Assembly: GCA_000002435.2 (NCBI GenBank) | Contig: CM018790.1 | Source: Giardia intestinalis | Taxonomy: Eukaryota | Length of the DNA stretch: 64,000 nt | Direction: 5' to 3' (one strand) | Part shown: positions 3,443 to 32,170 of the stretch, one piece after another | How the letters are laid out: each line of letters opens with the position of its first letter | Position numbering within the stretch: position 1 is the first letter of the stretch | Notes under the pieces: generated by a model | Seen by the model: only the letters and a program-made list of their open reading frames with translations | What the model was told of the DNA's origin: nothing | Databases searched by the model: none | Position numbers and translations under genes: made by a program

Positions 3443-3451
3443 AGTTTTTTA

Positions 3452-3458
3452 ATTTACT
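3452..3458 (-). terminator. Candidate AGTAAAT polyadenylation signal downstream of the ankyrin-like gene
   Basis: Minus-strand AGTAAAT lies 63 nt past the stop at 3521 and matches the Giardia AGTRAAY consensus. It sits within the A-rich stretch before the next ATG. Confidence 0.3.
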
Positions 3459-3520
3459 TCACCATACGTTTTTAGAGTCAAACTTCAACGAAATGCTTTT
3501 TGGAAAATGTACTAGATTGC

Positions 3521-7520: not shown

Positions 7521-10500
7521 TCATGATACTATGCGTTTTATCCTTTCCTTATCAAAGTCTATGTACTCTTCTAGCTCCTCTAGCGTCTTTAAGAACGTTT
7601 CTCGAGCCAGTAGGTAAAGACCCTCATAGTCCCTATATTTTCCCATGAGCTGATTCGCAAGTACGATCTTTTCTGCTTGCAGGTTCATCAACCTGATAAT
7701 GAGCTTCCCCAATCTTTCGCGACAGAGCTCTATCTCAGTGTGTGTTAGGGAATTTGGTTCCTTACAATATACTGGCAGTTCATTGCGCAGAATGTCTATT
7801 TTTTCCGCTATGTGTGGTGGAAGCATCTCATTATTAGCCTGAACATAGTCAGAATTAGACATGAACCCAGTTATATTGAACCGACCGTGGTATCCAGACT
7901 CACGGCATGTACCATAGGGACCCATGAAGTATACATCTGAATCCGATTGAGGAATGTATGCTTTGTCTACATGTCGAAGCCTGTTTTGCTTTGATTCCTG
8001 GCTTGATCCGTGATAGGTGCTATCACCCGTAAGATAGCTCCCTTGGCGTAAAGCGTGAGTCGCCTTGCTATCGGGATACTTATATAAGTTGCGATAATGC
8101 TTCATCGAAACGTCTGTCTTGACCACCAACTTGGGGTATATTAAGTCAGACAAGAATACCTTTATCAGTCTGGGACATAGTGCGAAATAGCTTGAAGACG
8201 TAGTACCAGTGATGGTCTCTAGCTCTTCAGGTTCTTCCGGGTTCGTGGCTTCAGAAAAATCATCCACAGGGGTACTGAGTGGGGCCATCGCAAGGGATTG
8301 ATGGTATGGCATATTAAGCTTTAAGCTTGCTCTGATTGTTGCTAGTCGCTCGGTTGGAGTAAAGAGCTCTTTAATATCATAGCCTTCATCAGAGTTCAGC
8401 TCCGGGCTTCCTCCCGATTTACGTTTGTCGATAAGAGAATCTTCCAGACTGGTGGAGGGAGCCGTTTTTGTCACACTGTGTGCGCCTGAATAGAGGGAGC
8501 TAGACACGTCATCCATCATGTGTGCGTCTGTCAATTCTTTAGAGTGTACCTTTTGTTCTGGTCGATCTGTGGCTATCCCTACTGTTGGTGACGAAATGCT
8601 TTCTCTGTTTTGGTCATCAAATGGCATGATCTTTTCTGGGAATATCCTAAGCGAATCATCTGCTTCTACGCTACTCTCCAAACATCTTACGGATCGATTG
8701 CTTTGATCTCTAACTATTACATCCGTATTCATGGTTTGGTTTTCTAGAAGGCCGTCATTTGACTTCGTGGCAATGAACGTGTCGTGGTTGTCATTGAGTT
8801 GCTTCTCAGTAAGTGCCACAGTAGTCGATGAGACAAGGTCATCGAAGTTAACCACCTGGATTGTAGTCTCCTGCTCTTCGGAAAATTCATTTCGCTTATT
8901 CAGGAACATTCTAACAATGTCCATAGTTCCGCTGTTCACGCTGGGGGTCACGATACCTGTTAAGTTTTGAAAGACTTTATTAAGCTCATCTGGAAGCCTT
9001 TCAGTATCATAGATTGCTTTTTCAACTATCCTGATGGCCTCTTGGATTGGATTGCTGTATTCCTCATAGACGTATATGACTCTTTGGCGCGAATTTGTGT
9101 GAGGAAATGGGTGTGCAGTGTAGTAGTAAACATTTAGACATCCGGCTAATTTGATTGATGAATCACCAGAGTACACCTGCTGTTGTATCCGTCGCCGAAA
9201 GATTTGTCGCGAGGTGTAGGAATGAATCGTGTTGCAAGACGATCCAGTATCAACTGAGGTTTCGTCGGATGCTAAAACAAACGGATAGTAATTATAAATG
9301 ATATTGGAGTAATACGTTATTGGATAGCCATCTTTCTCATCGGTAGCTCTATGTGCAGATACATGGTCGGCGTGCGTCCGTAGTAGCACTTCCCCAGGGA
9401 TGTGTAAGTTCGGTTCTGTGTGTACAGGCACTAAGTGAGGATTAGAGTATGGCCCCCCAAGGAACGATAAGCTGTCTTCGGGGTGCCCAGCCTTACTGTC
9501 TGCTCCCATGTCATAAGAAAGTAGTTGAGCCAAGATCTTCTGTTTTATCTGCTCCTCCTTTTCTGTGAGAAGTGCAGCCGATTGAACTATCTTGTACGGC
9601 TCCACCTTCTGAACAATTATCTTGGGCGTGCCGTCAGGTTTCCGCAAATCAGGTGGGTCGTAGAACCGCTTCAACCTCTCAGTGAACTCTCGAATTGTCT
9701 CTGAGTGAGGACAGCAATAGATATATTCTGTAGTCGATTCCTTACCGTTGTTTTCCGTCGTGATAGACACCCAATAGTAGTGCACATTCTCATGTAGTTT
9801 GTAAGCGTCCTCGTGGCTCTTCTTTTCGGCCAGGAGTGCGTCACTATAGCACTGGATCATAGAAAGCGGGTCGAAATAGCTAGGTAGCTTATCTTGTGTG
9901 GGTGTAGCCAGAGAGCTAGAATACAGCTCCGTCAGTGTCATAAGAAGCTTGTAGATATGCTTGGTATATAAATAGAACTTGGCAGTCTGGAACTCGGTGG
10001 CAGCGCTCTGCAGTGCAAGTAGTAATTTGAAAAACTGACCACCGTCCAGAGATGAGTATATGTTTTCGCTTTTCCCCATTAGATGCTGTGCCTTTGCAAT
10101 GTACGCGAACCATACATCCAAATCGTTCTGCACAGTAATGTCGGGAATAATCTTGCGCAGCTCCGGGATAACTATCTTACTGAGAGAGTAGACTGAAGGG
10201 AGACTGGAGTAATCAATAACCTTGTCGTCAAATTGTGACCTGACAATTAAGTACTCGCTAATAAGCCCCGCAATCAATATAGACACCATTCCGGCTTCAA
10301 CGTGCCGTCTGTTTTCCCTTAAAAAGTTAAAGAGCGACTGCAGACTAAATAGGCGCAGGTCCACTTGACCAACGTAGCAATCTGCCTGTGACAGCTTGAG
10401 CTCTGCATACAGATCCAAGTCGGTAACGGTGCTCCCCATCGATTGGATCTTGGAGCGCTCCTTTATCATGTACTCGCTTTCTATTACTATGAGCAATCTA

Positions 10501-13500
10501 TCATAGAAGAGACATACAGTTGAATAGAAGTGCTTGCAGATAAAGCTAACCTTGCCTGAGACGGGAGTCATCTCATGCAACCCAGAACCGTCGTCACAGC
10601 CTCCGTTTATCCAGGCCTCGTCGTTAGAGCATATCTCGTTGACACCAGCACGTACGTAATCAAAGAATGAAATTATTGCCTTCTTCTTCTTGGCTGTAAG
10701 ATCCATAGTGACCAAGGAGTAATTGATCATCGAAAATAGAATGGACGTGTTGGCATGATAGTCAAATTCTATTTTGAGCAATATCGCGATTATCGTTGCT
10801 GCTAGACTGTACAGACTGAACTGTTCTAGGTCTATTTTATCAAGCAATGCCTTAATAACCATAGAGATTCCATGATCAAAATCAGATTTTTTATTTTCTA
10901 AACCATTGAATAAGATTGAGGCAATAGACGGAAAATAGTTGACAAGGGCGTTCAGCACAATCTCATTATACACAGCAAACTTGTGATCCTTAACTAGAAA
11001 GTATGCAAATGTATGAATTAATTCGGCGTGAACGTCACAGAAGCTTGAAGATGACGTTGACCCAGAATCCAGTACTCGAGTCTCGTCTGAATTGACAATA
11101 AGGTGTTGTGTGTATGAGAGTAATTGATACATAGCTGATTCATAAATAAGTGTCGAAAGCAGTGATGCAACCACGTCACAGGACGAATCAGGACCCTTTA
11201 TTAGCTTCAGATAAAGCAGGTCTGCTGATGTGGAATGGGCTCGTTGCGGGTTGCTTACATTATCCACGGTAGTTTGAGAAGCTAAAGAAATAGGCTTTTC
11301 AACGTGTGCTTCGGTTGAGTCAAGGACCGACAACTTATTACTTTTAATTTGGGCTGCTAGGTAGGTGATAACCTCCTCCACACTGGAGGGCTTCGTCCGA
11401 TGACTCAAGTGATGGCGAGGCGGGGATAGAGCTGGGGGGTGTGGCTCTACAGCAGGTATCTGCTTAATGCAGCTGTCAGTAAAAGTGAAGGTGCCTGTTA
11501 ATCTATGGACGCTCGAGCCTTTGTCGCGATGTCGAGCAGAAACGCTGTGAGATATTTCCTTCTCATCTCCGGTCATGTCCTCTTCTGCCGTGGGGTCGTC
11601 GATAGAGCCCACAACCGAATGTGTCAACTTATGCCAGGTGTGCTGAGACTCCTGAATATCTACAGAGTCCTCAAGCGCTCGATAGATGCTGGCATCGTCA
11701 GTATCATCAGAAGTAGTAAGAGTCGCCTGGCTGATCTGTGTGGAGATCTTAAATCCTTGGCGTGCAGATTGTTTAGAGGTAGGTTTCTTCATAGCGCGAT
11801 GCCCGCCTCTGGAGGTCGTAGACTCGCGCTGCTCCTTTATGATCCTCCTGGGGATGTATGGGATGTTGGGGCATGTCTGTTGTCCAAACGATGCTCCCGA
11901 AGGTATTGTTCCATGAGCATTATGATAGGCAGTTGCAGTGTGAAATAACTGGCTTGAAGTAACCCAAGTAGTAGAGGCATTTCTATCCGTTTTGGAGTAT
12001 GGGTCATAGGTCGACGTATGCTGAAGAGATAGCACCGGATTTTGGGTTGTATTGCTAGATAGTTTACCATCATCGTTATATTTGAGCACCCTCCCCATAA
12101 ACATATCCGTAATCGTTTCAGAAAACAAGAGTAGGTCATCACTCACCGAAGAACCAGATTTAAAAGAGTCAAAAAATGGACCGAGCCTCTGATGAGCGTG
12201 AACTTGCTGATTAGATGAATCACTATAGAATGGAGAAACAAACAGAAAAGGCGTGGGCTTAACAGAGCCATTATTTGGAGGAAGGAAGATGTTGTCGACA
12301 AGCTTGGAGTCACCAGACAGCAGAAAATTCAAATAACGCATGCTCTGAACACGGTAGGATGAAGATGTCAGAATAGTGGCCCTCTTTCTAAGAGAATCCT
12401 CGTCAAAGAGAAACGGTACATGGCGATAGATCTTAAGCATGCTCTGTGCTTGCTCCACAGTTAAGTTGCGCAAAAACTCAATGCAGTAATTTGTTAATCT
12501 TTGAAGAAAGGTAATAAGAAAGAGGAACATTTCTGCCATAAGAAGTTCCAACGAAAAGTCAGTGCATTGCGCCTGAACGTCCGATGTGTGTGAATACGGA
12601 GATCCCCGGACTGTCTTAGGTGTAGACGAATCTTCAAGATCTGATTGCTTCACAGTTGTCCTTGGAGTGGACAAGGATGCAACCGCCACTCCTGCATTGT
12701 CTGTAACATTACACTTCCTACCCTGGTCGCCAGGCACCGTGTGCACATCAGTCTCAGGTGTGCTTGCCCTATTACTGGTGTCAGTCTGCTTGTTGACTGA
12801 ATTGAAGAACTTGTCATAATTATCAAGAATTAATAGGAGCAGTGGGACACACGACACGTAGAGAAATGACGGGGTTTGTCTAGCTATGTCCCCCGAGCAA
12901 ACCTCCCAAAGAAATATAAAGATATTTGTGCAGATTGATCGGAAAGCCGTGTGGTCTTCTACGGAATGGGACAGCTCAGAATTATAGTTAAACAGCAGAC
13001 AATGCAATGCCTTGAGATACAAATGCGGAAGAATGCACCCCACTGGAATCAAGTTGAATGGTGGTAACGTGTAGTCGACGGAACCATCAGAGGTGTCGGA
13101 AGCGCCCCCTTGGAAAGTAAACGACTCCTTAGCGTGAATGTCTGTGAATGAGTATGAATAGAGAAGAGCCCGTTCCCTCATCAATTGGTGCAAAAAGTCA
13201 AAGAAGATCTGCCACCTGGTAAACCAATGACCACCCTTGAAGGTGTCATTTTTGTCAATCAGAGACTCGAGAAACGAGAACAACTTAGTCTTCTTGGGGC
13301 TAGTAACAACAAGAAGAATAAAAAGCTTTGCAGTCGAGGTAATAATAACAAAGGACTTATTGTACGAGGTTAGTGAATAACAGGAATCGATAAGATTATA
13401 AAGAATTGCGTTGATCAAATGGCCTATTGAGTTGATGAAAGCAATGAGGTCGGCTTCAAACTCAGCTCGCTCTACACTGTCATGAGAGACGGTCGCACTC

Positions 13501-16500
13501 GATGAGTGCGTGCCCTCCAAACTGTCGGAGTTTCCGGAGACATCCAGCACTGCGTTGTCAAAAAGAAAGCAGGACATACTAGCATTGTACAAATGCTTAT
13601 ACCTGGTCAAGATAATCATAAAGCTTTTGGCGATAAGGAGAAAGTTGTGGGGTATGATTGCAAAAAGACGGTCAACTAAAGAGGATTTCTGAATGATGTA
13701 CTTTATTACGCTGTTGTGTAAGTAAGAAACATAATTCTGAAGCGCTTGGAAGGTTGTTATAGAGCATATGTGGTGGGCAACCATGGCGTACACGGCCAGA
13801 TTGGCAAGTACGAAAGAGTCTTGCTTAAATGGCTCGGACAGGGAGGTATCTGATGAACTGTCTTGATGGTAGAACGAGATGTGATTGCCGATACCGCCGA
13901 GAGCCCGGTATATGTCTGATAGTGCCGCGAACTCGCCATCTAACGGATTCTGTATCGCGCTCGTAGAGCCAAACAACGGCGCTAGCATGGCCCCGAGAAG
14001 CGGAGTGTAGATGAAGTTCTGTAGCATCATAAGCCAGGAGTTGCGCCTCCCAAAAGTTTTGTGTGCTTTAAACGCGGCTGCCACTTCTTCGTTAATACAA
14101 TGGCGATATAAATTGTTGACAATCGCCATGCTCTCGTTTGAAATGGTGGTAAAGGGGGCAAGAACGTGCTCCAGGCAATTGAAAATAAGGTCCCTAGAAA
14201 CAACGTGTTCAAATAGCTCTTGGTGCATGAGCAGGGAGGCCAGTGCAACTGCAATATTATAGGTGGGCCCATATTGCTCCAATAGAATGCTCTCTCCATA
14301 AAATGGAATGGACTTACGCTTAGAAGCTGCTAGCTGGGCCTGAAGCTGGGCTTGAGTCGCTGCAAAGCTTGCACCTGCCGGTGCCAGCGGTCCACGTAGT
14401 TCGTCGCTCACAATGCTACTGGTAGCGTTTCCTAAGTATGCATCCCGGGATATCTTAAAACTGACCGCGTAGAGATTGACCTTGTCGCAAAATCTACGCA
14501 GGGTCTTCACGCTTTTATCCAGATCAATGCAGCTGTGGAGAACTATGTTCTTAGCGCATGTATATGCATAGTAAATTGCGTTCAAAAAGTGAGAATGTGT
14601 GTAAAGGGAAGATTCATAGCGTAGTGTGCAAAGCATATATCCTACCTGTTTAGTCTGCTTGCTGATGCCATCTGTTAGACCCTGTAAAGGCCTTTCCTTG
14701 TCAGCTTGAGACGACAAATAGCCTGCAGAAATTTGGCTCTGAAACGGGATAGAAATAGATCTATCATAGTTTTCGACAAACTCGCTATTTGTCATCATAG
14801 GAGGAGACAAGGCATCGACCCCGAGAGTGTTCTGCAGCACCGGTACTCCCAGCTCGTCGACACCCTTGACAAGAGGAAGGTATGCATAACCAAGTAGTGA
14901 AAGCTGAGTGCGTGCCTCAACGATGTGCTGAATGCTCGCTGGGTCTATTGAGTCTTGCATACCCGATCCCAGTATTTCAGTATATTGCGAGGATCTCACG
15001 GGAATGGAGTCAGCAGGATGCGACACGACGGAACTAGTGGTGGACATCTTACCTGAAGCAAGAGCATAGGTGGGGAATGTATGCTCCTTGTTATCAGTGG
15101 TACTACAGAATGCAGGTGTTGCATATAACTGTGTCAACTTGGTGAGATTCATGATCTCAGTGGCTGTTTTCTCTTGAGGTACAAAGACAGTATCGTCAAC
15201 ACCTACAATTGTCGAGAGATCACATTTATCTGCATGAGCCCTTTCTTTTGCAGAAAGCCCAGGAACCCCATAGAGCGTAAACAGGAAATGTGTCTTCGGA
15301 GTGATGTACAGCGGTAGCTCAAACTTAACCTCATCATGGAGTCGTACCACACGCGTATTGACAGCTGCAGAGGTCAAATACGAACTTCGAAAGGCTATTC
15401 GACCCTTAGTCATGTCATCCGGTGTCATGGAGCCGTGAAGCCTTGGATAAATGGCCCACATTATATCTTTATCGTCTAATGCATCATCAGAGCGCATCTC
15501 CACCTTCAGGAAGAAAGCATTGTAACGTGCATTCGGTAGAGTTACGATAAAAGACTGCGGATATAGGTAGACCCGATTCCTGAAGGGAGCGGCAGGAGTA
15601 CCGACCTCTCGGCGGAAGAAGCAGTCTAGCTGCTTAACGTAGATGTGGTTGGGATGAAGCTTATTTCCTCTAATGCGATCGAAGAAATAATGGGACTGAA
15701 GCGAAGAAAACGCCTTTTTATGCTCTAGTGTGGTCTCGGCGTCACGTAGCGTCAGATATATGCGTTGACTAGATATCCCTTGTGCGCTCATGAGGGCAAA
15801 TAATAAAAGATGACTCAGTGTGTCTGTAGTCAAATATCCGTGCTTCAAAAGCAACAATAAATCACTATGTTCTCCTCTCTCGAGAAGATGCAGACTATAG
15901 GACCAAACCATTAGCTCTAGTTCATGTGCAAAATCCGGAAGGTGATTTGGCTGCAGAGTGCGGTAACTTGGGGCGTCCTTTATAGCTCTGAACACCCCTG
16001 AACTTGAATCATAGACACCGAACGTATTGACAGAAGTATTGACATACAATTGAACGTAGTTTAAAGCCCGTTTCTTTGATACGCGATCATTGTATGTGTT
16101 TAAAAGAACAGAGGCCAGAGGCTCTGTTTGTGAAATATTTTTAGGAAGGCGAACAAAGGTGTTAAGCTTATGCGAAACGGGTCGCAAGGGGTGCACAAAG
16201 GAAAGCCCCTTCTCATTTAGAACACTAGAAAAACGAGGATCCTTTTTGAGCTTGCTTACAGAGTAAATGCCGCGCCTTTTCTGCTCATTGAAGTATCCAC
16301 ACATGCGGCCAATAAGCTCCCTGCGTTCAGGATCAGTGTCGGACTCCTGTAGATGCACAAATGAATCGGCGTCAGAGTTGGAATTGCAATCTGCCTCCAA
16401 TAGATCTTGCAGCCTGACCTGTTGCTCCATCCCATCTCTACGCTTGATGCTTGAAGTTCTAGAATAAATAATTTTGGTGAGCAAAAGAAAGTTTTCCAAT

Positions 16501-18503
16501 TGCTGAATAGAGACCTTGCTATCACAAACTGTAGTACTGATTTTTCCACGCGAAGAAGCTGTCTGTGCTAGTGTTGCAACTGGAACAGATTCGTCCGAGC
16601 GCACTACGCTCCGCGGTACTCCCATGATGCTAATATTATGAGCAAAAGCGTGGGGCTGAGAGTCTGGGTTAGAAGTACTTGGGCAAGCATCGTAAAAGTT
16701 AGAGTCGGGCAGGACACTGGCCACTTGGTCAAAGGTTGCTCGTGCACTACTTGTGTCTGCAGGGTCTAGAGACAGTGCTCCCTGAACATGGCTAGATGAG
16801 TCGTGCGGGTGGGCTACCCGCTTCAAAGATGCACTACCTTGCATAGAGAACGCCGATAAAGGAAAGATGGGAGAAATGCTCACGGCAAACGTCTCCCTGA
16901 GCCCACCAGTCTGTCTGATAGCTGCCCTAACCTTAGGGAGATACTTGTTACACTCTGCCAAGATCTGCTCACCATACTTTCCATAGGCTGCGAAGATACT
17001 AGTTGGAACTTTGGACTCAGTACTTAGGCTGCTAGTGCAGGTATAATCAATACCTGGATACTTAAAGAAAGGCATGTCACCTTTGGACTTCTTAGCTTCA
17101 AGTTTCCTCTTCGTGTGGCCCTGAACTGAGGGTGCACCAGATTGCTTGCTTTGGCTATCACTGGTCAGAGTGTGGGAAAGAGAACTGACTATCGCTTCAT
17201 TGATGCTACTGTCATGTCTTGTCTGGGAAAACTTGTTGCTTAGTACACCCGAGATTACTCTGATGTCATGGGATGCAACACCGTCTGCCAGTCTCTGCAA
17301 GTAAAGGCTGTAGCGGTCGACTTCCGACCTGATCTTTTCATCTGCAAGGGCAAGGTCTTCTAGCTCTTTGATCCTGGAGTAGAATGCGTGCGATTCATCA
17401 GACGAGACACCTATGGTCTTTTCTAGAAACACAACCAAGAAAATACGTCTGAAGCACGTCTGCGATGAAATGGGAATGGTAAACTCCACGAGCTTCGACC
17501 TTTCGATCGTATCCAAGATAGTCATGAGTCTGCTATAAAGGGGCTTAGAATCAAGTGATGTTTTATCACACGCGAAGCTCCGAAGTGTCGAAAAACAGTT
17601 CATATCTATATACTGGCTCTCAGACACCCTATAGAGCCCATGTTGACCGTTGTCAGTGGAGCTATAGTAATACAATGCAATTGAGCCGTAAAACGGCTCC
17701 ATGACCTCTCTGTTCACCATCCCTACCACCAAATTTTCAATGCTGAGACTCATTCTGAGCACAGGCGGCTTAATAAAAGGCGGTATTGATATCTTCTCAA
17801 AGAGAAAGTCGCTGGACGTGATCTTCCCGATGTTCATTAACTCCAAGAGCAACCGGGGCTCAGTAAAGAGTCTCTCCAAAAGGATGTTGATAGGTGGTAC
17901 GTTATTGACGGTTTTTTGGGTGGTAAAGGTCTTGCTCTTTTGGCTTCTGACACCACCTGTGTAACGGTCTAGAAGGACCGGCACATTACGCATAAGTTTG
18001 CTGGCATTTTCCAGCACACTTAGAGCCGACGACGTTCGAAATATGGGGTCCACATCGGCGTAGATGGTACACGGATGGGTCAGAAAAAACCGGATAATGT
18101 CCAGTGTGGCATGCGGATACTCTACCGCCTTAAGGAACGGAGCATCTATCTGAAGCCTTATGGAGCTTATAGGGCTGGAGGAAGTGGTACGATGGGTGGA
18201 GATAGATTCTTGTCCGTATCGTACACTGCCGCTCCTGTTAGAGTCTGGCTCCAAACGGCTATCCTCAGAAACCTGCATATCACAGAACTGTGGGCCTGCT
18301 CTACCACTAGGAGCGCTTTCACGGAGAGTCCTAAAATCATCAAGTACGTGCGGTGCCACGCGCCAGTACGTAAATGGCACTCTGGGGGAGCGCTGGATGC
18401 CAAATCCGGCCGCCTCCTTTAGGACATTGAAGTACTCCACGTCTGAGGCCTTCAAACCGAAGACAAATTGGTCCCAATTATACTGTGCTGAACTGTTTGA
18501 CAT
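7521..18503 (-). CDS. Giant (3660 aa) DOCK-like protein with DHR-1 (C2-like) and DHR-2 (GEF-like) motifs
   Basis: ATG (cat 18501..18503). Candidate DHR-1 signatures: KFELPLYITPKTHFLFTLYGV and LGYAYLPLVKG. Candidate DHR-2 signatures: TEYIYCCPHSE ... KIIVQKVEPYKI, resembling DOCK KEYIYKEPKLT ... YIQVTxVxPFF. Paralogous to the gene at 35739..45110. Confidence 0.55.
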   Translation of the reverse strand: MSNSSAQYNWDQFVFGLKASDVEYFNVLKEAAGFGIQRSPRVPFTYWRVAPHVLDDFRTLRESAPSGRAGPQFCDMQVSEDSRLEPDSNRSGSVRYGQESISTHRTTSSSPISSIRLQIDAPFLKAVEYPHATLDIIRFFLTHPCTIYADVDPIFRTSSALSVLENASKLMRNVPVLLDRYTGGVRSQKSKTFTTQKTVNNVPPINILLERLFTEPRLLLELMNIGKITSSDFLFEKISIPPFIKPPVLRMSLSIENLVVGMVNREVMEPFYGSIALYYYSSTDNGQHGLYRVSESQYIDMNCFSTLRSFACDKTSLDSKPLYSRLMTILDTIERSKLVEFTIPISSQTCFRRIFLVVFLEKTIGVSSDESHAFYSRIKELEDLALADEKIRSEVDRYSLYLQRLADGVASHDIRVISGVLSNKFSQTRHDSSINEAIVSSLSHTLTSDSQSKQSGAPSVQGHTKRKLEAKKSKGDMPFFKYPGIDYTCTSSLSTESKVPTSIFAAYGKYGEQILAECNKYLPKVRAAIRQTGGLRETFAVSISPIFPLSAFSMQGSASLKRVAHPHDSSSHVQGALSLDPADTSSARATFDQVASVLPDSNFYDACPSTSNPDSQPHAFAHNISIMGVPRSVVRSDESVPVATLAQTASSRGKISTTVCDSKVSIQQLENFLLLTKIIYSRTSSIKRRDGMEQQVRLQDLLEADCNSNSDADSFVHLQESDTDPERRELIGRMCGYFNEQKRRGIYSVSKLKKDPRFSSVLNEKGLSFVHPLRPVSHKLNTFVRLPKNISQTEPLASVLLNTYNDRVSKKRALNYVQLYVNTSVNTFGVYDSSSGVFRAIKDAPSYRTLQPNHLPDFAHELELMVWSYSLHLLERGEHSDLLLLLKHGYLTTDTLSHLLLFALMSAQGISSQRIYLTLRDAETTLEHKKAFSSLQSHYFFDRIRGNKLHPNHIYVKQLDCFFRREVGTPAAPFRNRVYLYPQSFIVTLPNARYNAFFLKVEMRSDDALDDKDIMWAIYPRLHGSMTPDDMTKGRIAFRSSYLTSAAVNTRVVRLHDEVKFELPLYITPKTHFLFTLYGVPGLSAKERAHADKCDLSTIVGVDDTVFVPQEKTATEIMNLTKLTQLYATPAFCSTTDNKEHTFPTYALASGKMSTTSSVVSHPADSIPVRSSQYTEILGSGMQDSIDPASIQHIVEARTQLSLLGYAYLPLVKGVDELGVPVLQNTLGVDALSPPMMTNSEFVENYDRSISIPFQSQISAGYLSSQADKERPLQGLTDGISKQTKQVGYMLCTLRYESSLYTHSHFLNAIYYAYTCAKNIVLHSCIDLDKSVKTLRRFCDKVNLYAVSFKISRDAYLGNATSSIVSDELRGPLAPAGASFAATQAQLQAQLAASKRKSIPFYGESILLEQYGPTYNIAVALASLLMHQELFEHVVSRDLIFNCLEHVLAPFTTISNESMAIVNNLYRHCINEEVAAAFKAHKTFGRRNSWLMMLQNFIYTPLLGAMLAPLFGSTSAIQNPLDGEFAALSDIYRALGGIGNHISFYHQDSSSDTSLSEPFKQDSFVLANLAVYAMVAHHICSITTFQALQNYVSYLHNSVIKYIIQKSSLVDRLFAIIPHNFLLIAKSFMIILTRYKHLYNASMSCFLFDNAVLDVSGNSDSLEGTHSSSATVSHDSVERAEFEADLIAFINSIGHLINAILYNLIDSCYSLTSYNKSFVIITSTAKLFILLVVTSPKKTKLFSFLESLIDKNDTFKGGHWFTRWQIFFDFLHQLMRERALLYSYSFTDIHAKESFTFQGGASDTSDGSVDYTLPPFNLIPVGCILPHLYLKALHCLLFNYNSELSHSVEDHTAFRSICTNIFIFLWEVCSGDIARQTPSFLYVSCVPLLLLILDNYDKFFNSVNKQTDTSNRASTPETDVHTVPGDQGRKCNVTDNAGVAVASLSTPRTTVKQSDLEDSSTPKTVRGSPYSHTSDVQAQCTDFSLELLMAEMFLFLITFLQRLTNYCIEFLRNLTVEQAQSMLKIYRHVPFLFDEDSLRKRATILTSSSYRVQSMRYLNFLLSGDSKLVDNIFLPPNNGSVKPTPFLFVSPFYSDSSNQQVHAHQRLGPFFDSFKSGSSVSDDLLLFSETITDMFMGRVLKYNDDGKLSSNTTQNPVLSLQHTSTYDPYSKTDRNASTTWVTSSQLFHTATAYHNAHGTIPSGASFGQQTCPNIPYIPRRIIKEQRESTTSRGGHRAMKKPTSKQSARQGFKISTQISQATLTTSDDTDDASIYRALEDSVDIQESQHTWHKLTHSVVGSIDDPTAEEDMTGDEKEISHSVSARHRDKGSSVHRLTGTFTFTDSCIKQIPAVEPHPPALSPPRHHLSHRTKPSSVEEVITYLAAQIKSNKLSVLDSTEAHVEKPISLASQTTVDNVSNPQRAHSTSADLLYLKLIKGPDSSCDVVASLLSTLIYESAMYQLLSYTQHLIVNSDETRVLDSGSTSSSSFCDVHAELIHTFAYFLVKDHKFAVYNEIVLNALVNYFPSIASILFNGLENKKSDFDHGISMVIKALLDKIDLEQFSLYSLAATIIAILLKIEFDYHANTSILFSMINYSLVTMDLTAKKKKAIISFFDYVRAGVNEICSNDEAWINGGCDDGSGLHEMTPVSGKVSFICKHFYSTVCLFYDRLLIVIESEYMIKERSKIQSMGSTVTDLDLYAELKLSQADCYVGQVDLRLFSLQSLFNFLRENRRHVEAGMVSILIAGLISEYLIVRSQFDDKVIDYSSLPSVYSLSKIVIPELRKIIPDITVQNDLDVWFAYIAKAQHLMGKSENIYSSLDGGQFFKLLLALQSAATEFQTAKFYLYTKHIYKLLMTLTELYSSSLATPTQDKLPSYFDPLSMIQCYSDALLAEKKSHEDAYKLHENVHYYWVSITTENNGKESTTEYIYCCPHSETIREFTERLKRFYDPPDLRKPDGTPKIIVQKVEPYKIVQSAALLTEKEEQIKQKILAQLLSYDMGADSKAGHPEDSLSFLGGPYSNPHLVPVHTEPNLHIPGEVLLRTHADHVSAHRATDEKDGYPITYYSNIIYNYYPFVLASDETSVDTGSSCNTIHSYTSRQIFRRRIQQQVYSGDSSIKLAGCLNVYYYTAHPFPHTNSRQRVIYVYEEYSNPIQEAIRIVEKAIYDTERLPDELNKVFQNLTGIVTPSVNSGTMDIVRMFLNKRNEFSEEQETTIQVVNFDDLVSSTTVALTEKQLNDNHDTFIATKSNDGLLENQTMNTDVIVRDQSNRSVRCLESSVEADDSLRIFPEKIMPFDDQNRESISSPTVGIATDRPEQKVHSKELTDAHMMDDVSSSLYSGAHSVTKTAPSTSLEDSLIDKRKSGGSPELNSDEGYDIKELFTPTERLATIRASLKLNMPYHQSLAMAPLSTPVDDFSEATNPEEPEELETITGTTSSSYFALCPRLIKVFLSDLIYPKLVVKTDVSMKHYRNLYKYPDSKATHALRQGSYLTGDSTYHGSSQESKQNRLRHVDKAYIPQSDSDVYFMGPYGTCRESGYHGRFNITGFMSNSDYVQANNEMLPPHIAEKIDILRNELPVYCKEPNSLTHTEIELCRERLGKLIIRLMNLQAEKIVLANQLMGKYRDYEGLYLLARETFLKTLEELEEYIDFDKERIKRIVS

Positions 18504-18645
18504 TGGTCAAAAGCCACAGGAGGATCGCAGCCCAACTAAAGCTCCAAGAGGACAAGTGCAATTAAATCTGTCCACAGTTTCCATACACTTTCCATATCTT
18601 TATTGCCAAATATCCAATCACATTAAAATTTTATCGGATTCTAAA

Positions 18646-19059
18646 ATGGCGGAAGCTGAACTGACGCAGGACGTGGCCGAGGCCTTCATGCATTTTTACT
18701 ATGATTCTCTATTAACAGACCTGTTGAGAATACAATCTGTGGTTGACCAAAGCTGCAAGTTTGTCTACCGCACGTGCAAGCCCCACGGGAAGGAATCCCA
18801 ATATGATTCTAAAAAAGATCCCCAGGCCATTATGAAGGCACTCGAGGTCATCTATAAAGATATAGATAAAGTAGACATATTGATGTGGACCCCTGTTCTT
18901 TTGGAGGACAGTATTACCCTTGTGGTGTCTGCTAAGTACCAGCAGAAAAATAAGCAAGAGCCTTTGCTTACTAGTGAAGTGTTAGTCATAGGAAGGAGCA
19001 AGCAAAAACAGAAGCGGGGATTCTCCCTATTAGCAATCACTACGCACATCATAGAATGA
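18646..19059 (+). CDS. NTF2-like small protein (137 aa; NTF2 / p15 fold)
   Basis: True ATG sits in the ctaaaATGgcg context. AEAFMHFYYDSL resembles NTF2 GSSFIQHYYQLF, and size and C-terminal beta-rich part fit the NTF2 fold. The track's upstream extension (18160) would overlap the divergent giant gene. Confidence 0.45.
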   Translation: MAEAELTQDVAEAFMHFYYDSLLTDLLRIQSVVDQSCKFVYRTCKPHGKESQYDSKKDPQAIMKALEVIYKDIDKVDILMWTPVLLEDSITLVVSAKYQQKNKQEPLLTSEVLVIGRSKQKQKRGFSLLAITTHIIE

Positions 19060-19097
19060 TAGCGGGGTGGCTAAAAAATAAATCAGGTGACGGTGAG

Positions 19098-19104
19098 AGT
19101 AAAC
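19098..19104 (+). terminator. AGTAAAC polyadenylation signal for the NTF2-like gene
   Basis: Exact AGTAAAC 39 nt after the TGA at 19057..19059, immediately before the ATG of the next gene at 19105. Confidence 0.5.
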
Positions 19105-21717
19105 ATGTGTCTCACGCATGCAGTGGAGACAATTGTGCATCGTCTAGAGGCCGAGCTAGACACCCCCTTGGGCAAGCTGCTGGAGGTTCATGAAAGCTAC
19201 CACGCCAAGGCATTTCCATTCAATGGGAGCTATAAGCAGCTACTCAAGCAACAGCACAGTATACCGTTCACAGAATATGATGCTATACTTATGTACAGGA
19301 TTCTATTTTATATCTACGATGCTATCAATCCAATTAATATATTACCAGAGCAGCTAAATGAAACAGTAGCTCCATGCGTCCTGTCCTTGCTCTCTCTGAT
19401 GCTTGGCAGGCACGTCTCCCCAGTGTTATGTGCCCTCAAAACCTTCATTTTATCAACCACACATGATACATTCTTTAAACCCATATACCGGAGTAGAGGT
19501 TGTGCATTTCCACATCTATTTCATGCATCGCTCAGCTCTGTCATCCAGGCTCATGCCGTAGGCTTCCTCACTGAAGCTTTGCAGGAGACGCCGTATGCAA
19601 AGTATATCAAATTGTACTGTAGACGATCGCGGCACGCCATATGCTGCCCTGTGATCTCCACGTCCTTTATCGACCAAGTACTTATGCAGTTTCTATCAAC
19701 ATCAAGCCCATTTTTGTCGAAAACACTGGCCAGTGAGTGCTGCAGCTGCGATCGATCAATAGTGCACGCTTTAAAGATAGTAGAAAAAAGGTGCAAGTTT
19801 CGGTACCTAGATAAGACTCGGCTCTACCTTCCAGACATCTCCTGTGGGTCCTCTTTCGGCCCGCCTGTGTCTTGCTTCAGTGACCAGAGCAGACCAGGAC
19901 CTGTTCGACTGACGTGGCTTCCAGTATCCAGGACCGTCATGAGTAGGGACGATCCTCTGTATCCTATTACTAAGTCCCCGGTGCCGTGTGCATGCTGTAG
20001 CTCTTCCACGACTTCGCCACAGACTTCCACCTGCACTCTAGGCATCACGGGGCGTGTTACCCAGCTCTTCCTAGACTTCCTGTCTCTCTCCTGTAAAACC
20101 GCAAAGGACTCGGGCAAGCCAGCCGACACACTTTCGTTTTTAAGATACTTAGAGACAACAGACACTAAGGATCTATGTTCCTGCATCAAACGGGATCTTA
20201 TTGCTGCTGCACAGCTTGATATGCTGCACGAACTTGATAAGCTCCTGCAGGAGGGCAGCCTGGCGTCTTGCCCTAGCCCAGCTGTGAGAAAGAAGCTTGC
20301 TGAGGTTGCTCATGTCTTTTCTATGCTGTATTATGATGTCCTAACATTGGAATGTCGAAGCACTGGACAATATACCACACTTTTGGCGTCCCACAATTAC
20401 ACTCCTGACAGGGCTCTCAGACTGTCCACTGGTGTCGGCAAGGTCCGAAAGACTAACAGCAATAACGAGGATCTTAGCAGCGACGGTGACTGGGTGCAGG
20501 AGCCAGCTAATGTACCTAAGAAAAAGCAATCATATCGGGTGTTCACCAGAGCCTTCGAAGCGAAAAATCTAGCACTGAACCTGTTCATCAAAGAGTGCAG
20601 TAGCTTCAAAGACCTGGATGCTTCGGGTATCTCTAAAGCGTCAGCGCTTTTCAGAATTATGACCTCTATGTGTCCAGAGAACAAAGATGAGGCCTTCTCA
20701 TCTACCTCCAAGGAGAAACGCGTCTCACTGCCATCTTCATATACTCACTCTGGCACCAGTAGCCATGAGGGAGACTCCCTCAGATACATTTTGGCTGTAA
20801 TGACCTCTTCTCTCTACAGTCCTGTCTCTCCCCCGCCCACGTCACACCCCTTCTACTTTTCCACAAGACAATTGTATAGGTTTATTCTGCTGAACAATTC
20901 TGCAAGTCCATGGATTCTTAATTTGGTAGAGCAGATCAGAACAAAAGACATCCAGATTGTGCGACACCGTGTACTGCCGACCAGAAGGATGTCCGTCTAT
21001 GAGTGTTCCAGACAGTGCTCGTGCCCCCTCTCATGCTTACGCCGGTGCGTTCAGTTTGGCAAGCGGTATAGGCTTCAAATCTTCCGGCAGCGGTATGGAT
21101 ATTGGGGTCTCAGGACACTGGATTATATACCAAAAGGAGCGCCGGTGTGTGAGTACACCGGAGATCTGATTGGAGAGAACCTAGCAGAGCGACGGGGTGT
21201 AATAGCTGACATGCAGCGCTGCTCATATCTCTATGACATCGTTTGTGTCTTCAAGTATTGCTTCTCATCTTCTGAAAAGCCAGCTCACAGAGACGCCCGC
21301 GGTGCATCCTCTGGAGGAATGCGGCTTGGACTTTCTAGCCATGGGATACGGGGTGCACACGTTTCTCAAGAAACCGCTGACTCCGATGATTCTTATAACC
21401 GCAGCGCATCAGACTTGGAGGCCAGCACCATATATGTTATAGACGCCACTAGAGCAGGCAATGAAGGCCGATATGCTAACCATCGCACAAGGGATAATAT
21501 AGTAGCCAAGCGAATAATATGGGACGACGACCCGATCACTAGTCACTTTGCCCACCCTCATCTTTACTTCTTTGCCACCACTGACATCAAACCAATGGAA
21601 GAGCTGTTCCTCAACTACATGTACAAGGACAACGGCGACGGCCTCATAAGGCTGAAGTACCCCTGGGCTTTCGACAATGAAGCAGTGACGAAGGAAGCCA
21701 ATGAGGAGATTCACTAA
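19105..21717 (+). CDS. SET-domain lysine methyltransferase with a pre-SET-like Cys cluster (SUV39-like architecture, no post-SET)
   Basis: C-terminal pre-SET-like ECSRQCSCPLSCLRRCVQFGKRYRLQIFRQRYGYWGLRT; SET-N GAPVCEYTGDLIGE; SET-C IDATRAGNEGRYANHRTRDN ... ELFLNYMY. Track start 19087 is GTG; first ATG is 19105. Confidence 0.75.
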   Translation: MCLTHAVETIVHRLEAELDTPLGKLLEVHESYHAKAFPFNGSYKQLLKQQHSIPFTEYDAILMYRILFYIYDAINPINILPEQLNETVAPCVLSLLSLMLGRHVSPVLCALKTFILSTTHDTFFKPIYRSRGCAFPHLFHASLSSVIQAHAVGFLTEALQETPYAKYIKLYCRRSRHAICCPVISTSFIDQVLMQFLSTSSPFLSKTLASECCSCDRSIVHALKIVEKRCKFRYLDKTRLYLPDISCGSSFGPPVSCFSDQSRPGPVRLTWLPVSRTVMSRDDPLYPITKSPVPCACCSSSTTSPQTSTCTLGITGRVTQLFLDFLSLSCKTAKDSGKPADTLSFLRYLETTDTKDLCSCIKRDLIAAAQLDMLHELDKLLQEGSLASCPSPAVRKKLAEVAHVFSMLYYDVLTLECRSTGQYTTLLASHNYTPDRALRLSTGVGKVRKTNSNNEDLSSDGDWVQEPANVPKKKQSYRVFTRAFEAKNLALNLFIKECSSFKDLDASGISKASALFRIMTSMCPENKDEAFSSTSKEKRVSLPSSYTHSGTSSHEGDSLRYILAVMTSSLYSPVSPPPTSHPFYFSTRQLYRFILLNNSASPWILNLVEQIRTKDIQIVRHRVLPTRRMSVYECSRQCSCPLSCLRRCVQFGKRYRLQIFRQRYGYWGLRTLDYIPKGAPVCEYTGDLIGENLAERRGVIADMQRCSYLYDIVCVFKYCFSSSEKPAHRDARGASSGGMRLGLSSHGIRGAHVSQETADSDDSYNRSASDLEASTIYVIDATRAGNEGRYANHRTRDNIVAKRIIWDDDPITSHFAHPHLYFFATTDIKPMEELFLNYMYKDNGDGLIRLKYPWAFDNEAVTKEANEEIH

Positions 21718-22346: not shown

Positions 22347-25300
22347 TTATCCTACCCATTCCCCTTCGAAGACTGTGCCATTTGCATATGTCATGACACC
22401 CTTACCGCATATCTTATTTGCCAGAAAGTGCCCCACATAAACATCTCCATTTGCATACCTCAGAGTTCCCTTTCCGTGGTACTTACCATAGCTAAACTCT
22501 CCTGTATACACGTCTCCACTCTTCTGCCGACGCACTCCTTCACCGTGCGGCATCCCAGCAGCAACGTTTCCTTCGTAGTAGTCTCCATTACTGTATGTTA
22601 TCTTGCAGTCGCTTCCTTCCATAACGTCATGGGCGAACGTTCCCTCCAGGACATCTCCGTTGATAAGGCGCATGATGCCCTGGCCGTGCTTCATGTTGTT
22701 AGCAAACTCCCCCTCATATCTGTCGCCGTCTCTGTAGACCAAAGTTCCTGCACCCCACATTTCGTTTTCTCTCCACATTCCCTCGTAGACACTGCCATCT
22801 GGAAAGGTCATTTTACCGAGTCCGCTACGAAGATCTTCCTTGTACGGTCCAGTGTATGTACTGCCGTTAGGATAATTCATCGTGCCGTGTCCATGCCGAA
22901 GGTCGTTAAGAAACTCACCTACATAAATCTTCTCTTCTTTGTATATTAGAGTGCCACTTCCACAGCGCTTATCCTCTTTATACTCGCCTTTGTACTTTAG
23001 CGCTCCAGTAGACAGGTAGAATGCACCACTCCCATGCCTCATGCAATCAAGTACGTCGCCCTCATAGTAGTCTGAGTTTGGATATACCATCCTGCACTTG
23101 TGGGCAGAAGGGGTTATGCTGGGGTTTGTCAGGGCAGAAGCATCGGCGTCTACCTCGTCTAGGGCCAAATTGTATTGAGCACATAAGTTCTCGGACGGGT
23201 CTGTGTGTCCTTTGTTGAGCAGCTCTATCCTGGCAGAGCACAGCGTAGAGTAGTGCTTCTTAAACTGCTCTGGTAATCTCTTAAGCTGCCAATGGATTGT
23301 AAGAAACGTGGTAGTTGATGAAAGAAACGCCTTTCCGGCTCCATAGAACACTCCGTAGACATATTCTCCTATATATCTAATATCGGAGCTTTTGAACACA
23401 ATCTCCACAGTATCTTTCTCGTTACCATTCTCATATGTGTTTTCCATTATTATTGGCTGGAGAGGTTGTATGGTTTTTTCTAGCACACCATCATCACTTT
23501 TACCGTCCTTGTCGCGTCGCTCTAACACCCGAAACCGGTTAGATGTGCCGTTGATGAATTTGACAAGCTTTCCGGATGGGACTCCTTTGACGTATCTTCC
23601 TGTTTCAATCTCTCCCTGGGAACTCAGAATAGTCTGATCACCGCACAGGTTGTCGTTCCTGAAAGCCCCAATGACTAGCAACCCGGATCCTGCTGAAAAT
23701 GCCTTCCCGGCCCCGTGTCGTCTATCTGCGTAGAAGCCTCCACGATATATGTCTCCGTTGACATAATGCACGACTGCAATGTTAGACGATGTAAGTGTAA
23801 ACTCATAGGGATCCTCACTACACCCAAGAGTCAGACAATAGCTAGGCTCCGCACTCTCTGGACCATGATCTTTCGAGGATGCAAACCTCATTGGGCCGGC
23901 GTATGTTCTTATGTGACTGTGTGGGCCATAAGGCCTTGTCTCGCTATGAGCGTAGATCAAAAGATTGTACCCCCCGTGGGAGATGTCTCCCTCATAAAAG
24001 CTAGCTGTCAGCACATAGTTATACATAGGGTTTGTCAGCTTCCCAAGCCCAGAAAACTTCCCTCTAGAAAATCTCCCTTTGTAGCTGATTCCATTAGAAT
24101 ATTCTAGGAGGCCTTCTCCGTGGAAGAGGCCGTCCTTTAAAGGGCCTCTATAATGGTAGGTATTATCTGAAACAGTGTATACTGTACATGCACCAGCCTG
24201 AGCTTGCTGTATCCCTTTAACTACCCGCCTGTTTTGCGGGTCTGAATATTTAAATATCACCGTGCAGTGCTCTTGTGCCTTTCCATCCTCAAACTCACCT
24301 TCTGTTAGAGTGTCTTCTGCGCTGCTATAATATGTGCCCACACCCGTTTGCTTTCCTGCGATAAACTGACCCTTGTACCATGAGCCATCACCGAATGAGA
24401 GTGTTCCATCTCCATGGGGAAGCCCATTTGCAAATTCTCCTACATAGCTAGCATCACCCATCCTACCATTGTTTCCATAGGTGATCTTGCCTGCACCCTC
24501 CAGACGCCCTTCAACGAAATTCCCTTCGTAGATGTCTCCCGTCGTGGTCAACAGCAACCGCCCGGGGCCATGTCTAACATTATTGTAAAATGCTCCCACA
24601 TATTCTTCTCCTTCACTGGGAAGTTCTTGGCGGGATTCTGGGCCATCACGGCGAGACTGCACAAAAATCCCCTCGTACCGCTCCTGCAGTGTTGGTCGGC
24701 CATTGTGATCTCTTTTATAAAGAGACAGAACTCCGTGACCCGAAAGGACATTATCACTGATTGGCCCCTGGTAATTGAAAAGTTCCGATGATATAACAAT
24801 GCTTTTTCCACAGAGCGTTAATTCAGGACTAATATATCCTTTGTAGTTCGCTAGAACTGGTTCCTCGTAATCAATCCCTAGTGCTTGGAAAAAGTTTTCT
24901 TCCACAAATGAGGCCTCCAAAGCTATCTCTACTTCCCCTTGAAAAGAGCATACACAAGACAAGAGCTGTTTAGAGCCTAGTAGTTCTAAAAGCCTGTAGT
25001 ACCTAGAGAGATTGAAGTAGTTACATAGCTTGTACAGGTCTGGCTTCTGAGGCGAGGTCACAACTCCTGAAACAACCCCTAGACCTGGAGCAGTTACTTT
25101 GCCTTCTAGCAAGGGAAGATCGGCGTCAAATTGGCCGGAGTATTCTACTAAGAGCTTGTCATTGCATTTCAGAGCAAACTCTCCTTGTCCCCTGCGTCTG
25201 CCGTTACGGTACGTCCCCGAGTAGAGGAGACGTAACTGCGAAGATCCTGTGTCAGACGAGTGAACAGAGATGTCCATGGTGGCCTCTCCGTCTAGTATGG

Positions 25301-30940: not shown

Positions 30941-32170
30941 TTATTCCAAAGATAACTCGGCAAGACAGCGCGTGCATTGACAGGTAAAGCACCACTGCGC
31001 AAGCTCACGCCGACGCTCGACCACCGAGCGACCCAGGTCCGTAATATATGAGATATAAAGTTCCTCTTTTTGGGCACACGGCCGCAATAGAACAAGCGTG
31101 GCTTCGCGCGCATTTTCGCTATCTCCAAAAATAACTTGAGCATTAGGTGTGCAGCTGTGGTTGCAGCAAGATATTAGAGAATAGAGGCCTGCGCCTATCT
31201 CCTGTCCGGTCTTATCCTCTATGCTATAGCTATTTGTTAATAATATGCACACAAAATAGTTAAACATTTGAGCTCCCAAAAGTGTTGCCCTCGTTAATAG
31301 AAAATAATGCTCCGCAAATGATACGTCTGGGATAAGTTTCTCGAAAACACGACCTATATCTGGAAAAACCACATTGGGGAGGTTTTGTGAAGAACTCAGC
31401 TTTGTCTTCCGGGCCTGATTTCCAGGCTCCAGATATGCATAGTACATAAATGCGTATTGGAGGCTCAGTGCTTCGTCCTCTATCTCCATTAGATACGCGG
31501 CCTCTTTGCACATAATTTGGGCCATAATCTCCAGGACGTTATATGCAGAGAAGGGGGCACATAGCTCTGGGCAGTCGTGGATGGTATGCAGAATATCTTC
31601 GGCGATGTCTGGCCAGAGGGAAACACATAGGGCTACATGACCAAGAATGTAATGCCGTTCACGACAATTCTCTGAGCAGTATTCATGCCGACACGAAAAC
31701 GCATTTTCCTTGCGGTGCTTACATGGAACGGGCTGGCCTTTGATTGAAGAAAGACAACAAAAACAGTAACGCTTCTCATTGGTGGGCTGAATGACGTACT
31801 TTGATAGTGAATTGCGAGCCGTTAAGTCCAGGCGTTCGCGTGGAGTCTGGACCGCGGGGCTGATCTGTTCCCGAGGCGAATCAAACTCATCGTGGGTACG
31901 GCCGTGTTGACTGCTTGTTTGCTTATCGGTATAGACCTCCTTGACATAGGATGGGTGAAGCCAGCAGATTAGGGGGTTTTCAACAATAACCTGTGTGCCC
32001 TCTTCGGCATTTTCGGTGAGAAATAACCCTTTCATTTCACCCTGGCGGAAAGTGGCTCGTTTGCTCAGTCGCTTGTTTGCGCGCGACCTCTGTCCAATGA
32101 GTGACCGCCTCACCTCTAGGTTCGTACCCATCAGCAGCTGCGCATAGTGAGCATATAAATCTGTATTCAT
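30941..32170 (-). CDS. SMYD-like SET-domain protein with a MYND-type zinc finger
   Basis: N-terminal SET half GLFLTENAEEGTQVIVENPL; MYND Cys/His cluster CFCCLSS...CKHRKENAFSCRHEYCSENCRERHYILGHVALC; SET-C GAGLYSLISCCNHSCTPNAQVIF...LRPCAQKEELYISY. Confidence 0.7.
   Translation of the reverse strand: MNTDLYAHYAQLLMGTNLEVRRSLIGQRSRANKRLSKRATFRQGEMKGLFLTENAEEGTQVIVENPLICWLHPSYVKEVYTDKQTSSQHGRTHDEFDSPREQISPAVQTPRERLDLTARNSLSKYVIQPTNEKRYCFCCLSSIKGQPVPCKHRKENAFSCRHEYCSENCRERHYILGHVALCVSLWPDIAEDILHTIHDCPELCAPFSAYNVLEIMAQIMCKEAAYLMEIEDEALSLQYAFMYYAYLEPGNQARKTKLSSSQNLPNVVFPDIGRVFEKLIPDVSFAEHYFLLTRATLLGAQMFNYFVCILLTNSYSIEDKTGQEIGAGLYSLISCCNHSCTPNAQVIFGDSENAREATLVLLRPCAQKEELYISYITDLGRSVVERRRELAQWCFTCQCTRCLAELSLE

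Follow-up and report, generated by a model that had tools for sequence, protein, structure and literature searches.

Introduction

In a survey of 175 genomes in which Giardia intestinalis served as the example diplomonad, Fort and Blangy (2017; PMC5499878) reported 'unique DOCK proteins' in Euglenozoa and Diplomonadida, and found diplomonads to be without Dbl-type guanine nucleotide exchange factors (GEFs). The DOCK architecture includes a DHR3-C2 domain, described for all members of the family, and an ARM/TPR solenoid that links DHR-1 to DHR-2 (PMC10152721). According to reviews, every DOCK has a valine in the seven-residue insert of helix α10 (Val1951 of DOCK9), an essential residue that keeps Mg2+ out of the GTPase (PMC10152721, PMC8063744). 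Arabidopsis SPIKE1, which likewise carries the DHR3-C2 (PMC10152721), is a non-metazoan DOCK that activates the Rac-like ROP at endoplasmic reticulum exit sites, and a parallel with GlRac of Giardia has been drawn from it by Krtkova et al. (PMC4999545). According to the GlRac papers, GlRac is the only Rho-family GTPase of Giardia and governs the traffic of encystation vesicles, the attachment flange and a pathway resembling autophagy. Here we analyze GL50803_114201, a gene from G. intestinalis WB clone C6 coding for a DOCK-family protein of 3660 amino acids (aa), together with its surroundings in a 64,000-nucleotide (nt) stretch of contig CM018790.1 (GenBank assembly GCA_000002435.2), hereinafter the window.

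The locus conforms to the picture of Fort and Blangy in that excavate lineages without Dbl-type GEFs keep a DOCK with C2 and DHR-2 domains, and GL50803_114201 is presumably among the DOCKs that they counted for Giardia (PMC5499878). It departs from their 'unique' DOCKs in that G. intestinalis and G. muris each have two paralogues. That the protein belongs to the DOCK family is not new, being already recorded in databases and in one survey paper. Precomputed database Pfam matches for GL50803_114201 list DOCK-C2 and lobe A of DHR-2, and its assemblage B and G. muris orthologues bear the UniProt name 'C2 DOCK-type domain-containing protein'. With respect to the comparison with SPIKE1, that protein is not known to have large inserts within its lobes resembling those described below. 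A literature search by gene identifiers, by Giardia with dedicator of cytokinesis, and by GlRac with GEF recovered no functional study of GL50803_114201 or of its paralogue GL50803_114209; the sole main-text mention of GL50803_114201 found in the searched literature is a passing one, among 'predicted C2-containing phosphoinositide kinases' (PMC7058353).

A giant, divergent DOCK protein

GL50803_114201 is a complete coding sequence formed by a single uninterrupted open reading frame (ORF) of 3660 codons plus a stop, with an ATG start, at 7521..18503 on the minus strand. Its translation is identical to XP_037901681.1 / GL50803_00114201 / KAE8301995.1 / UniProt D3KHS6 (exact look-up), whose records are named 'hypothetical protein' or 'Uncharacterized protein'; the identity bears out the Giardia origin supposed in the initial annotation. 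At about 1.8 times the 2053 residues of the DOCK6 chain in the PDB, the protein is indeed nearly twice the size of metazoan DOCKs, as an initial annotation of the window had remarked when it proposed this giant ORF as a candidate DOCK-type Rho-GEF. The names attached to other copies are in conflict with one another. ESU36517.1, a protein of the same length and in the same 90% cluster, which we assign to the DH isolate via the DHA2_ locus tag on the ESU record of the neighboring paralogue, is called 'Putative GTP-binding protein', as is KWX15216.1 (these being the DH and assemblage B copies); ESU44947.1 is also among the conflicting records.

We scanned the whole protein against Pfam at a permissive threshold of E <= 10 and recovered exactly three families, all of them DOCK domains and in the canonical order: DOCK-C2 (PF14429; aa 974-1091; 34.4 bits against a cut-off of 33.6, E = 2.7e-8), DHR-2 lobe A (PF06920; aa 2701-2858; 32.3 bits against a cut-off of 26, E = 1.5e-7) and, below its cut-off of 26, DHR-2 lobe C (PF20421, model positions 10-55; aa 3171-3214; 20.4 bits). 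When the single sequence was compared to all PDB sequences with phmmer, only DOCK proteins were matched, with DOCK6 the best (E = 2e-4), followed by DOCK10 and DOCK9; the DOCK6 match comprises three collinear stretches corresponding to the C2 domain, lobe A and lobe C.

As these single-sequence scores are modest, we collected relatives for the construction of profiles. They were taken from an exhaustive HMMER search with aa 2680-3330 as the query against 1.84 billion representative proteins, the word-indexed search not having returned the query's own cluster for the giant protein. With a canonical DHR-2 query, the word-indexed search yielded only short (<700 aa) fragments, and proteins of great length seem to be practically beyond its reach. 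Only seven proteins were recovered by the exhaustive search at E <= 1e-3, all seven carrying DOCK Pfam domains. These are the assemblage B orthologue GL50581_3982 (70% identity across the whole length), GMRT_14228 from G. muris, a 4685-aa protein (P0033) from an SRA assembly (locus L003 8001..22058 on a 37 kb contig of SRR31929897), the second paralogue from the same window (GL50803_114209), its G. muris orthologue GMRT_14231, a fragment from the Carpediemonas-like Aduncisulcus, and a canonical DHR-2 from the amoebozoan Pellita. P0033 has a high content of Ala, Gly and Pro as well as even larger inserts, and its neighbor genes stand close together, as they do in Giardia. Given that only these seven emerge from so large a set, the diplomonad DOCK lineage is very isolated in sequence space.

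A profile built from the DHR-2 regions of six diplomonad sequences (A1) matched DOCK10 (E = 1.2e-30), DOCK9 (9.6e-30), DOCK6 (1.6e-28), DOCK7 (2.5e-19) and DOCK8 (4e-16), with each of lobes A, B and C aligned as a stretch of its own. In a profile-profile comparison with hhalign, the diplomonad DHR-2 aligned with 16 canonical DHR-2 domains over 366 columns at 99.9% probability and E = 1.7e-31, even as the identity to canonical DOCKs is only about 20%. The DHR-1 and DHR-2 signatures noted in the initial annotation thus go far beyond chance resemblance, both in the Pfam matches to DOCK-C2 and lobe A, which clear their cut-offs, and in the ortholog profiles. The analysis demonstrates domain homology, collinearity, retention of catalytic and structural invariants, a predicted DHR-2 fold, and catalytic blocks that are more conserved than the inserts, and we have hardly any doubt that GL50803_114201 is a genuine, extremely divergent member of the DOCK family.

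By sequence it looks closest to the DOCK-C/D (DOCK6-11) branch, with DOCK6 the best single-sequence match in the PDB and DOCK9/10 slightly better with the DHR-2 profile; we do not claim orthology to either subfamily. It differs from the DOCK-C/D proteins in its length (3660 aa against 2053 for DOCK6), in its inserts in DHR-1, lobe B and lobe C, in a central region that is unrecognizable by sequence, and in the low identity of DHR-2. The DOCK-D subfamily carries an N-terminal PH domain. The Giardia protein differs here too: neither PH nor SH3 families were found in the whole-protein Pfam scan, though a very divergent PH domain might escape a sequence scan of this kind. It is also unlike the human DOCK-A/B proteins (DOCK1-5), which work with ELMO. 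Beyond the missing SH3 match, the A1 profile reaches DOCK2 with an E-value of just 0.037 as against 1e-30 for DOCK9/10, and nothing points to a dependence on ELMO, no search for ELMO having been made in Giardia.

The DHR-2 lobes and the predicted catalytic valine

All features of GL50803_114201 given in this and the next two sections lie on the minus strand. The DHR-2 region begins with lobe A (aa ~2694-2900; 9804..10424), delineated by the PF06920, profile and hhalign matches and predicted to be helical with a predicted local distance difference test (pLDDT) of up to 93. It is followed by the first β-sheet of lobe B (aa ~2901-2980; 9564..9803), aligned with DOCK9/10/6 by the profile and with strands at pLDDT ~80. 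This sheet houses the two peptides that had initially been singled out as a DHR-2 signature, TEYIYCCPHSE (aa 2925-2935; nt 9699-9731) and KIIVQKVEPYKI (aa 2961-2972; nt 9588-9623). The motif pair is real, and the profile alignments place it more precisely in the first sheet of lobe B. Its form EYIY plus I-x-V-x-x-V-x-P is found in all of the diplomonad relatives and also in canonical DOCKs, with E237, Y240, V278 and P280 invariant or near-invariant in a 27-row alignment that includes canonical DHR-2 sequences.

An insert of about 105 aa (aa ~2981-3090; 9234..9563) then interrupts lobe B; it is gapped against canonical DHR-2 in the hhalign alignment, is poorly conserved, and has pLDDT mostly <50 with one short stretch at ~62. 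The second part of lobe B (aa ~3091-3150; 9054..9233), with the QIFRRR... and HPFPHT motifs, was recognized from the phmmer alignment to DOCK6/10, and all 27 sequences share its F444, P445 and R450. It passes into the first part of lobe C (aa ~3151-3212; 8868..9053), comprising the NPIQEAI helix and α10, which is covered by the sub-threshold PF20421 match and the profile matches.

The α10 insert, or 'nucleotide sensor', GIVTPSVNSG (aa 3183-3192; 8928..8957), contains V3189 (codon at nt 8937-8939), the predicted catalytic valine. This position is invariant in the six diplomonad sequences (V520) and in the 16 canonical DHR-2 domains (V404), and is Val in >=90% of the 27-row alignment (V500). In the A1 profile alignment it falls on index 347 of the DOCK9 chain 2wm9_A, which we take to be residue 1951, assuming that the chain starts at 1605. 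That GL50803_114201 has a valine at the equivalent of Val1951 does not depend on that assumption, because both candidate positions of the α10 insert are Val in this protein. Beyond this position, all or nearly all of the 27 sequences share E2926, Y2929, V2967, P2969, F3133, P3134, R3139, P3152, I3153, L3181, G3183 and N3190.

Immediately after α10, lobe C is interrupted by a polar, fast-evolving insert of about 375 aa (aa ~3213-3587; 7743..8867), which is gapped against all canonical DHR-2 domains in the untrimmed MAFFT alignment, has pLDDT <50, and shows 53-75% identity to assemblage B as against 93% for the preceding window across lobes B and C (aa 3121-3180). Pfam matches only the first half of lobe C, and the main hhalign alignment ends at canonical column 411 of 522. 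We propose that the lobe is split, and probably completed by the helices of the extreme C-terminus (aa ~3588-3660; 7524..7742), which would pack into it as the last helices of DHR-2. This proposal draws on several lines of evidence. In P0033, the two halves match the Pfam model separately: positions 3-44 at aa 4128-4169 and positions 39-101 in the last ~85 residues (E = 7e-5), with an intervening insert of about 430 aa. The tails of the six diplomonad proteins gave a single hhalign match, weak in itself (E = 0.0024, 12% probability), to canonical columns 424-474, the very piece missing after the end of the main alignment. In the untrimmed MAFFT alignment, the canonical terminal helices align with the diplomonad tails across one long gap, and in the structural model, the tail helices reach pLDDT 85-91 despite the ~375 disordered residues preceding them. 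A profile of the C-terminal tail matched no DOCK among PDB sequences.

We predicted the structure of the region with AlphaFold. A first model (aa 2670-3300, 631 aa, alignment of six rows) was poor, with a mean pLDDT of 48; its Foldseek matches were DOCK DHR-2 domains with template-modelling (TM) scores of 0.17-0.27, providing weak support only. A second model was made for the native aa 2690-3660 (971 aa) with the 27-row alignment (A7). The conserved blocks attained pLDDT 70-93, and the first 19 Foldseek matches were all DOCK DHR-2 domains (target-normalized TM 0.46-0.60), the next having E = 0.28. The structure-prediction check proposed with the initial annotation thereby points to a DHR-2 fold, with an alignment that contained canonical DOCKs.

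The N-terminal block, DHR-1 and the central region

Upstream of these regions, a conserved N-terminal block (aa ~240-400; 17304..17786), which includes EPFYGSIALYY, is shared by both Giardia paralogues and all orthologues. Its ortholog profile matches only DOCK6, at residues 280-353 (E = 2.8e-4), while a single-sequence search of the block against the PDB gave no match; from its position alone, it is probably the equivalent of DHR3-C2.

DHR-1 is represented by two pieces. The first part of this DOCK-type C2 domain (aa ~955-1084; 15252..15641), with KFELPLYITPKTHFLFTLYGV at aa 1060-1080 (nt 15264-15326), is covered by the PF14429 match, and orthologues score 41-53 bits with the same model. The ortholog profile of the C2 region (A2) matches the DHR-1 of DOCK8 (7clx; E = 2.6e-12) and DOCK6 (4.3e-11). 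The second part (aa ~1199-1290; 14634..14909) contains LGYAYLPLVKG (aa 1204-1214; nt 14862-14894), the equivalent of the DOCK GYSWLPI motif: the A2 profile aligns tllGYaylpLv with sllGYSWLPIL of DOCK8 in a collinear but weak match, and G276 and L282 are invariant in the A2 alignment. All four peptides quoted in the initial annotation are thus present in the translation, in agreement with the approximate ranges given for them. Between the two matched C2 pieces sits a poorly conserved polar insert of ~114 aa (aa ~1085-1198; 14910..15251), with 43% identity to the assemblage B ortholog in the window of aa 1141-1200 and with G. muris covering just 30-52% of the two spanning windows.

The central region (aa ~1291-2693; 10425..14633) is presumed from its position to be the α-solenoid with disordered inserts. 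It is of the right size for a solenoid or larger, and its conservation is patchy.

A windowed comparison of assemblages A and B along the whole protein brought out conserved islands with 82-95% identity at aa 241-420, 900-1080, 1201-1260, 1981-2040, 2521-2940, 3121-3180 and 3601-3660, separated by polar, fast-evolving stretches with 40-65% identity that are often absent from G. muris. As far as sequence comparison tells, the doubled size of the protein is made up of poorly conserved polar inserts in DHR-1, in the central region (several), in lobe B and in lobe C.

A second, ancient DOCK paralogue and the gene neighborhood

The window codes for a second DOCK protein, GL50803_114209 (3123 aa; D3KHS5), at 35739..45110 on the plus strand, about 17 kb from the first gene. 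It shows the same three Pfam families (DOCK-C2 at 36.2 bits, lobe A at 33.9 bits and lobe C at 21.4 bits) and aligns with GL50803_114201 in four collinear blocks of 24-29% identity. The two proteins have in common these Pfam matches, the conserved C-terminal tail and the V-N-x-G sensor; GL50803_114209 differs in its larger lobe A inserts and in a Leu that replaces the first valine of the G-x-V position. In UniProt, the orthologues of GL50803_114209 likewise already bear the name 'C2 DOCK-type domain-containing protein'.

A summed-score matrix resolves the diplomonad proteins into two orthogroups, {GL50803_114201, GL50581_3982, GMRT_14228, P0033} and {GL50803_114209, GMRT_14231}. Since each has a G. 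muris member, the duplication is older than the split between G. intestinalis and G. muris. The locus tags of the two G. muris genes are three apart, which suggests that they are neighbors in that species as well.

The genes lying between the two DOCK genes include one for the Giardia Dicer (27670..29934, minus strand; Pfam Giardia Dicer_N at 1e-100, PAZ and two RNase III domains). Immediately downstream of it is the mechanically called ORF for a 1776-aa MORN-repeat protein (22347..27677, minus strand), overlapping the Dicer ORF by 8 nt. Two SET-domain proteins are also encoded in this interval (876 aa at 19087..21717, plus strand; 409 aa at 30941..32170, minus strand), along with a CCT/TCP-1 chaperonin subunit (33423..35066, minus strand). 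Further along the window, a 1088-aa ORF (45558..48824, plus strand) has a single teneurin-EGF-like match that stays below threshold, with 17 bits where the cut-off is 65, and a 1614-aa ORF (58474..63318, plus strand) has no Pfam match. At the 5' end of GL50803_114201, a mechanically called ORF of 299 aa (18160..19059, plus strand) shares 344 nt with the DOCK gene, on the opposite strand. As the gene called by public assemblies at this locus (L001 1445..1858) is 137 aa long and does not overlap, the 299-aa call probably stems from an artefactual choice of start codon.

Functional implications and alternative explanations

The family assignment supports the proposal of the initial annotation that GL50803_114201 is a candidate DOCK-type Rho-GEF, and its premise of a single Rac-like GTPase and few recognizable GEFs in Giardia matches the literature on GlRac and on the absence of Dbl-type GEFs from diplomonads (PMC5499878). 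We consider the best explanation, an active DOCK-type GEF for GlRac operating by the mechanism of the family, quite probable as a whole, and an actual GEF activity on GlRac fairly probable. Under this explanation, the C2 domains would bring the protein to phosphoinositide-containing membrane, where lobes B and C would clamp switch 1 of GDP-bound GlRac. Val3189 of the α10 insert would then enter the nucleotide pocket and exclude Mg2+, whereupon GDP would leave; the binding of GTP-Mg2+ would displace the sensor and release active GlRac. Lobe A probably mediates dimerization. That the protein catalyzes exchange, acts on GlRac, binds lipids and dimerizes is in each case an expectation from membership in the family rather than a demonstrated property.

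Several observations weigh against this explanation. The Pfam model for lobe B stays below threshold in the 3660-aa protein, as does that for lobe C below its cut-off when GL50803_114201 is taken alone, and it is precisely lobes B and C, jointly the catalytic unit, that are broken up by large inserts. The second structural model has low overall confidence (mean pLDDT 54.5; predicted TM score 0.49), its mean being low because over half of the chain is insert, and it corroborates the sequence evidence without being independent of it, since canonical DOCKs were included in the alignment. An ortholog profile of the central region (aa 1215-1920) matched no DOCK in the PDB, and the residue numbering for 2wm9_A is an assumption of ours. 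With respect to function, the candidate GEF role is derived from sequence, the 2026 GlRac paper mentions no GEF, and no activator of GlRac is named across the searched GlRac literature. Moreover, DOCKs with normal-looking DHR-2 domains occur in species without Rac, and a conserved DHR-2 is therefore no proof of a Rac-GEF function (PMC5499878).

The last point, along with the GEF-independent roles of DOCKs (PMC5499878), could be taken to mean that the protein is a DOCK-derived scaffold or pseudo-GEF that has lost exchange and keeps its conserved blocks for binding partners or membranes. The interruption of lobes B and C by inserts of ~105 and ~375 aa, and the poor showing of both lobes against Pfam, would sit well with such a loss. 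Yet the catalytic Val, the L-x-G-x5-V-N and F-P...R motifs and the P-I pair are kept in both paralogues, in G. intestinalis and G. muris, and in a more distant relative, and no part of the protein is better conserved than the blocks bearing these motifs. Further, the inserts fall at loop positions of the model and are predicted to be disordered, and Giardia possesses a Rac but no other recognized Rho-GEF family. We accordingly regard a scaffold or pseudo-GEF as unlikely.

An active DOCK-type GEF might instead have a small GTPase other than GlRac as its physiological substrate: the presence of two ancient paralogues for one Rac could signal divergent substrates, and lobe B, which contacts the GTPase, is the least canonical part of the domain. 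However, all characterized DOCKs act on Rac/Cdc42-type GTPases (PMC10152721) and nothing in our analysis points to another substrate, which makes this alternative decidedly improbable. The labels in circulation, namely a C2-containing phosphoinositide kinase, from the listing in PMC7058353, and a GTP-binding protein, from the GenBank record names of ESU36517.1 and KWX15216.1, have next to no probability of being correct. The C2 domain is specifically of the DOCK type and DHR-2 leaves no part of the C-terminus unexplained. Neither a PI3K/PI4K catalytic domain nor a P-loop GTPase (G) domain was found in the whole-protein Pfam scan, and both labels were rejected.

Returning to a DOCK-type GEF for GlRac, one may go further and picture the diplomonad DOCKs as a distinct variant of the family, with disordered inserts of ~100 residues or so in lobes B/C and a lobe C completed ~375 residues downstream, whose neighboring ancient pair, GL50803_114201 and GL50803_114209, would be the sole activators of GlRac and divide its roles in encystation and trafficking, in the flange and attachment, and in the autophagy-like pathway. 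We offer this extension tentatively, deeming it somewhat more apt to fail than to hold.

Conclusions

The DOCK assignment would correct the annotations 'hypothetical protein', 'putative GTP-binding protein' and 'C2-containing phosphoinositide kinase'. General knowledge of the DOCK family is left unchanged, the small additions being the second paralogue, the map of inserts and the probable split of lobe C; of these, the positions of the inserts show where loops of very large size can be accommodated in the DHR-2 fold, which bears on DOCK structural biology. For Giardia itself, as diplomonads are without Dbl-type GEFs, the two DOCK paralogues constitute a short list of candidate GlRac activators, and with just these two genes on it, the question of what activates GlRac becomes directly testable.

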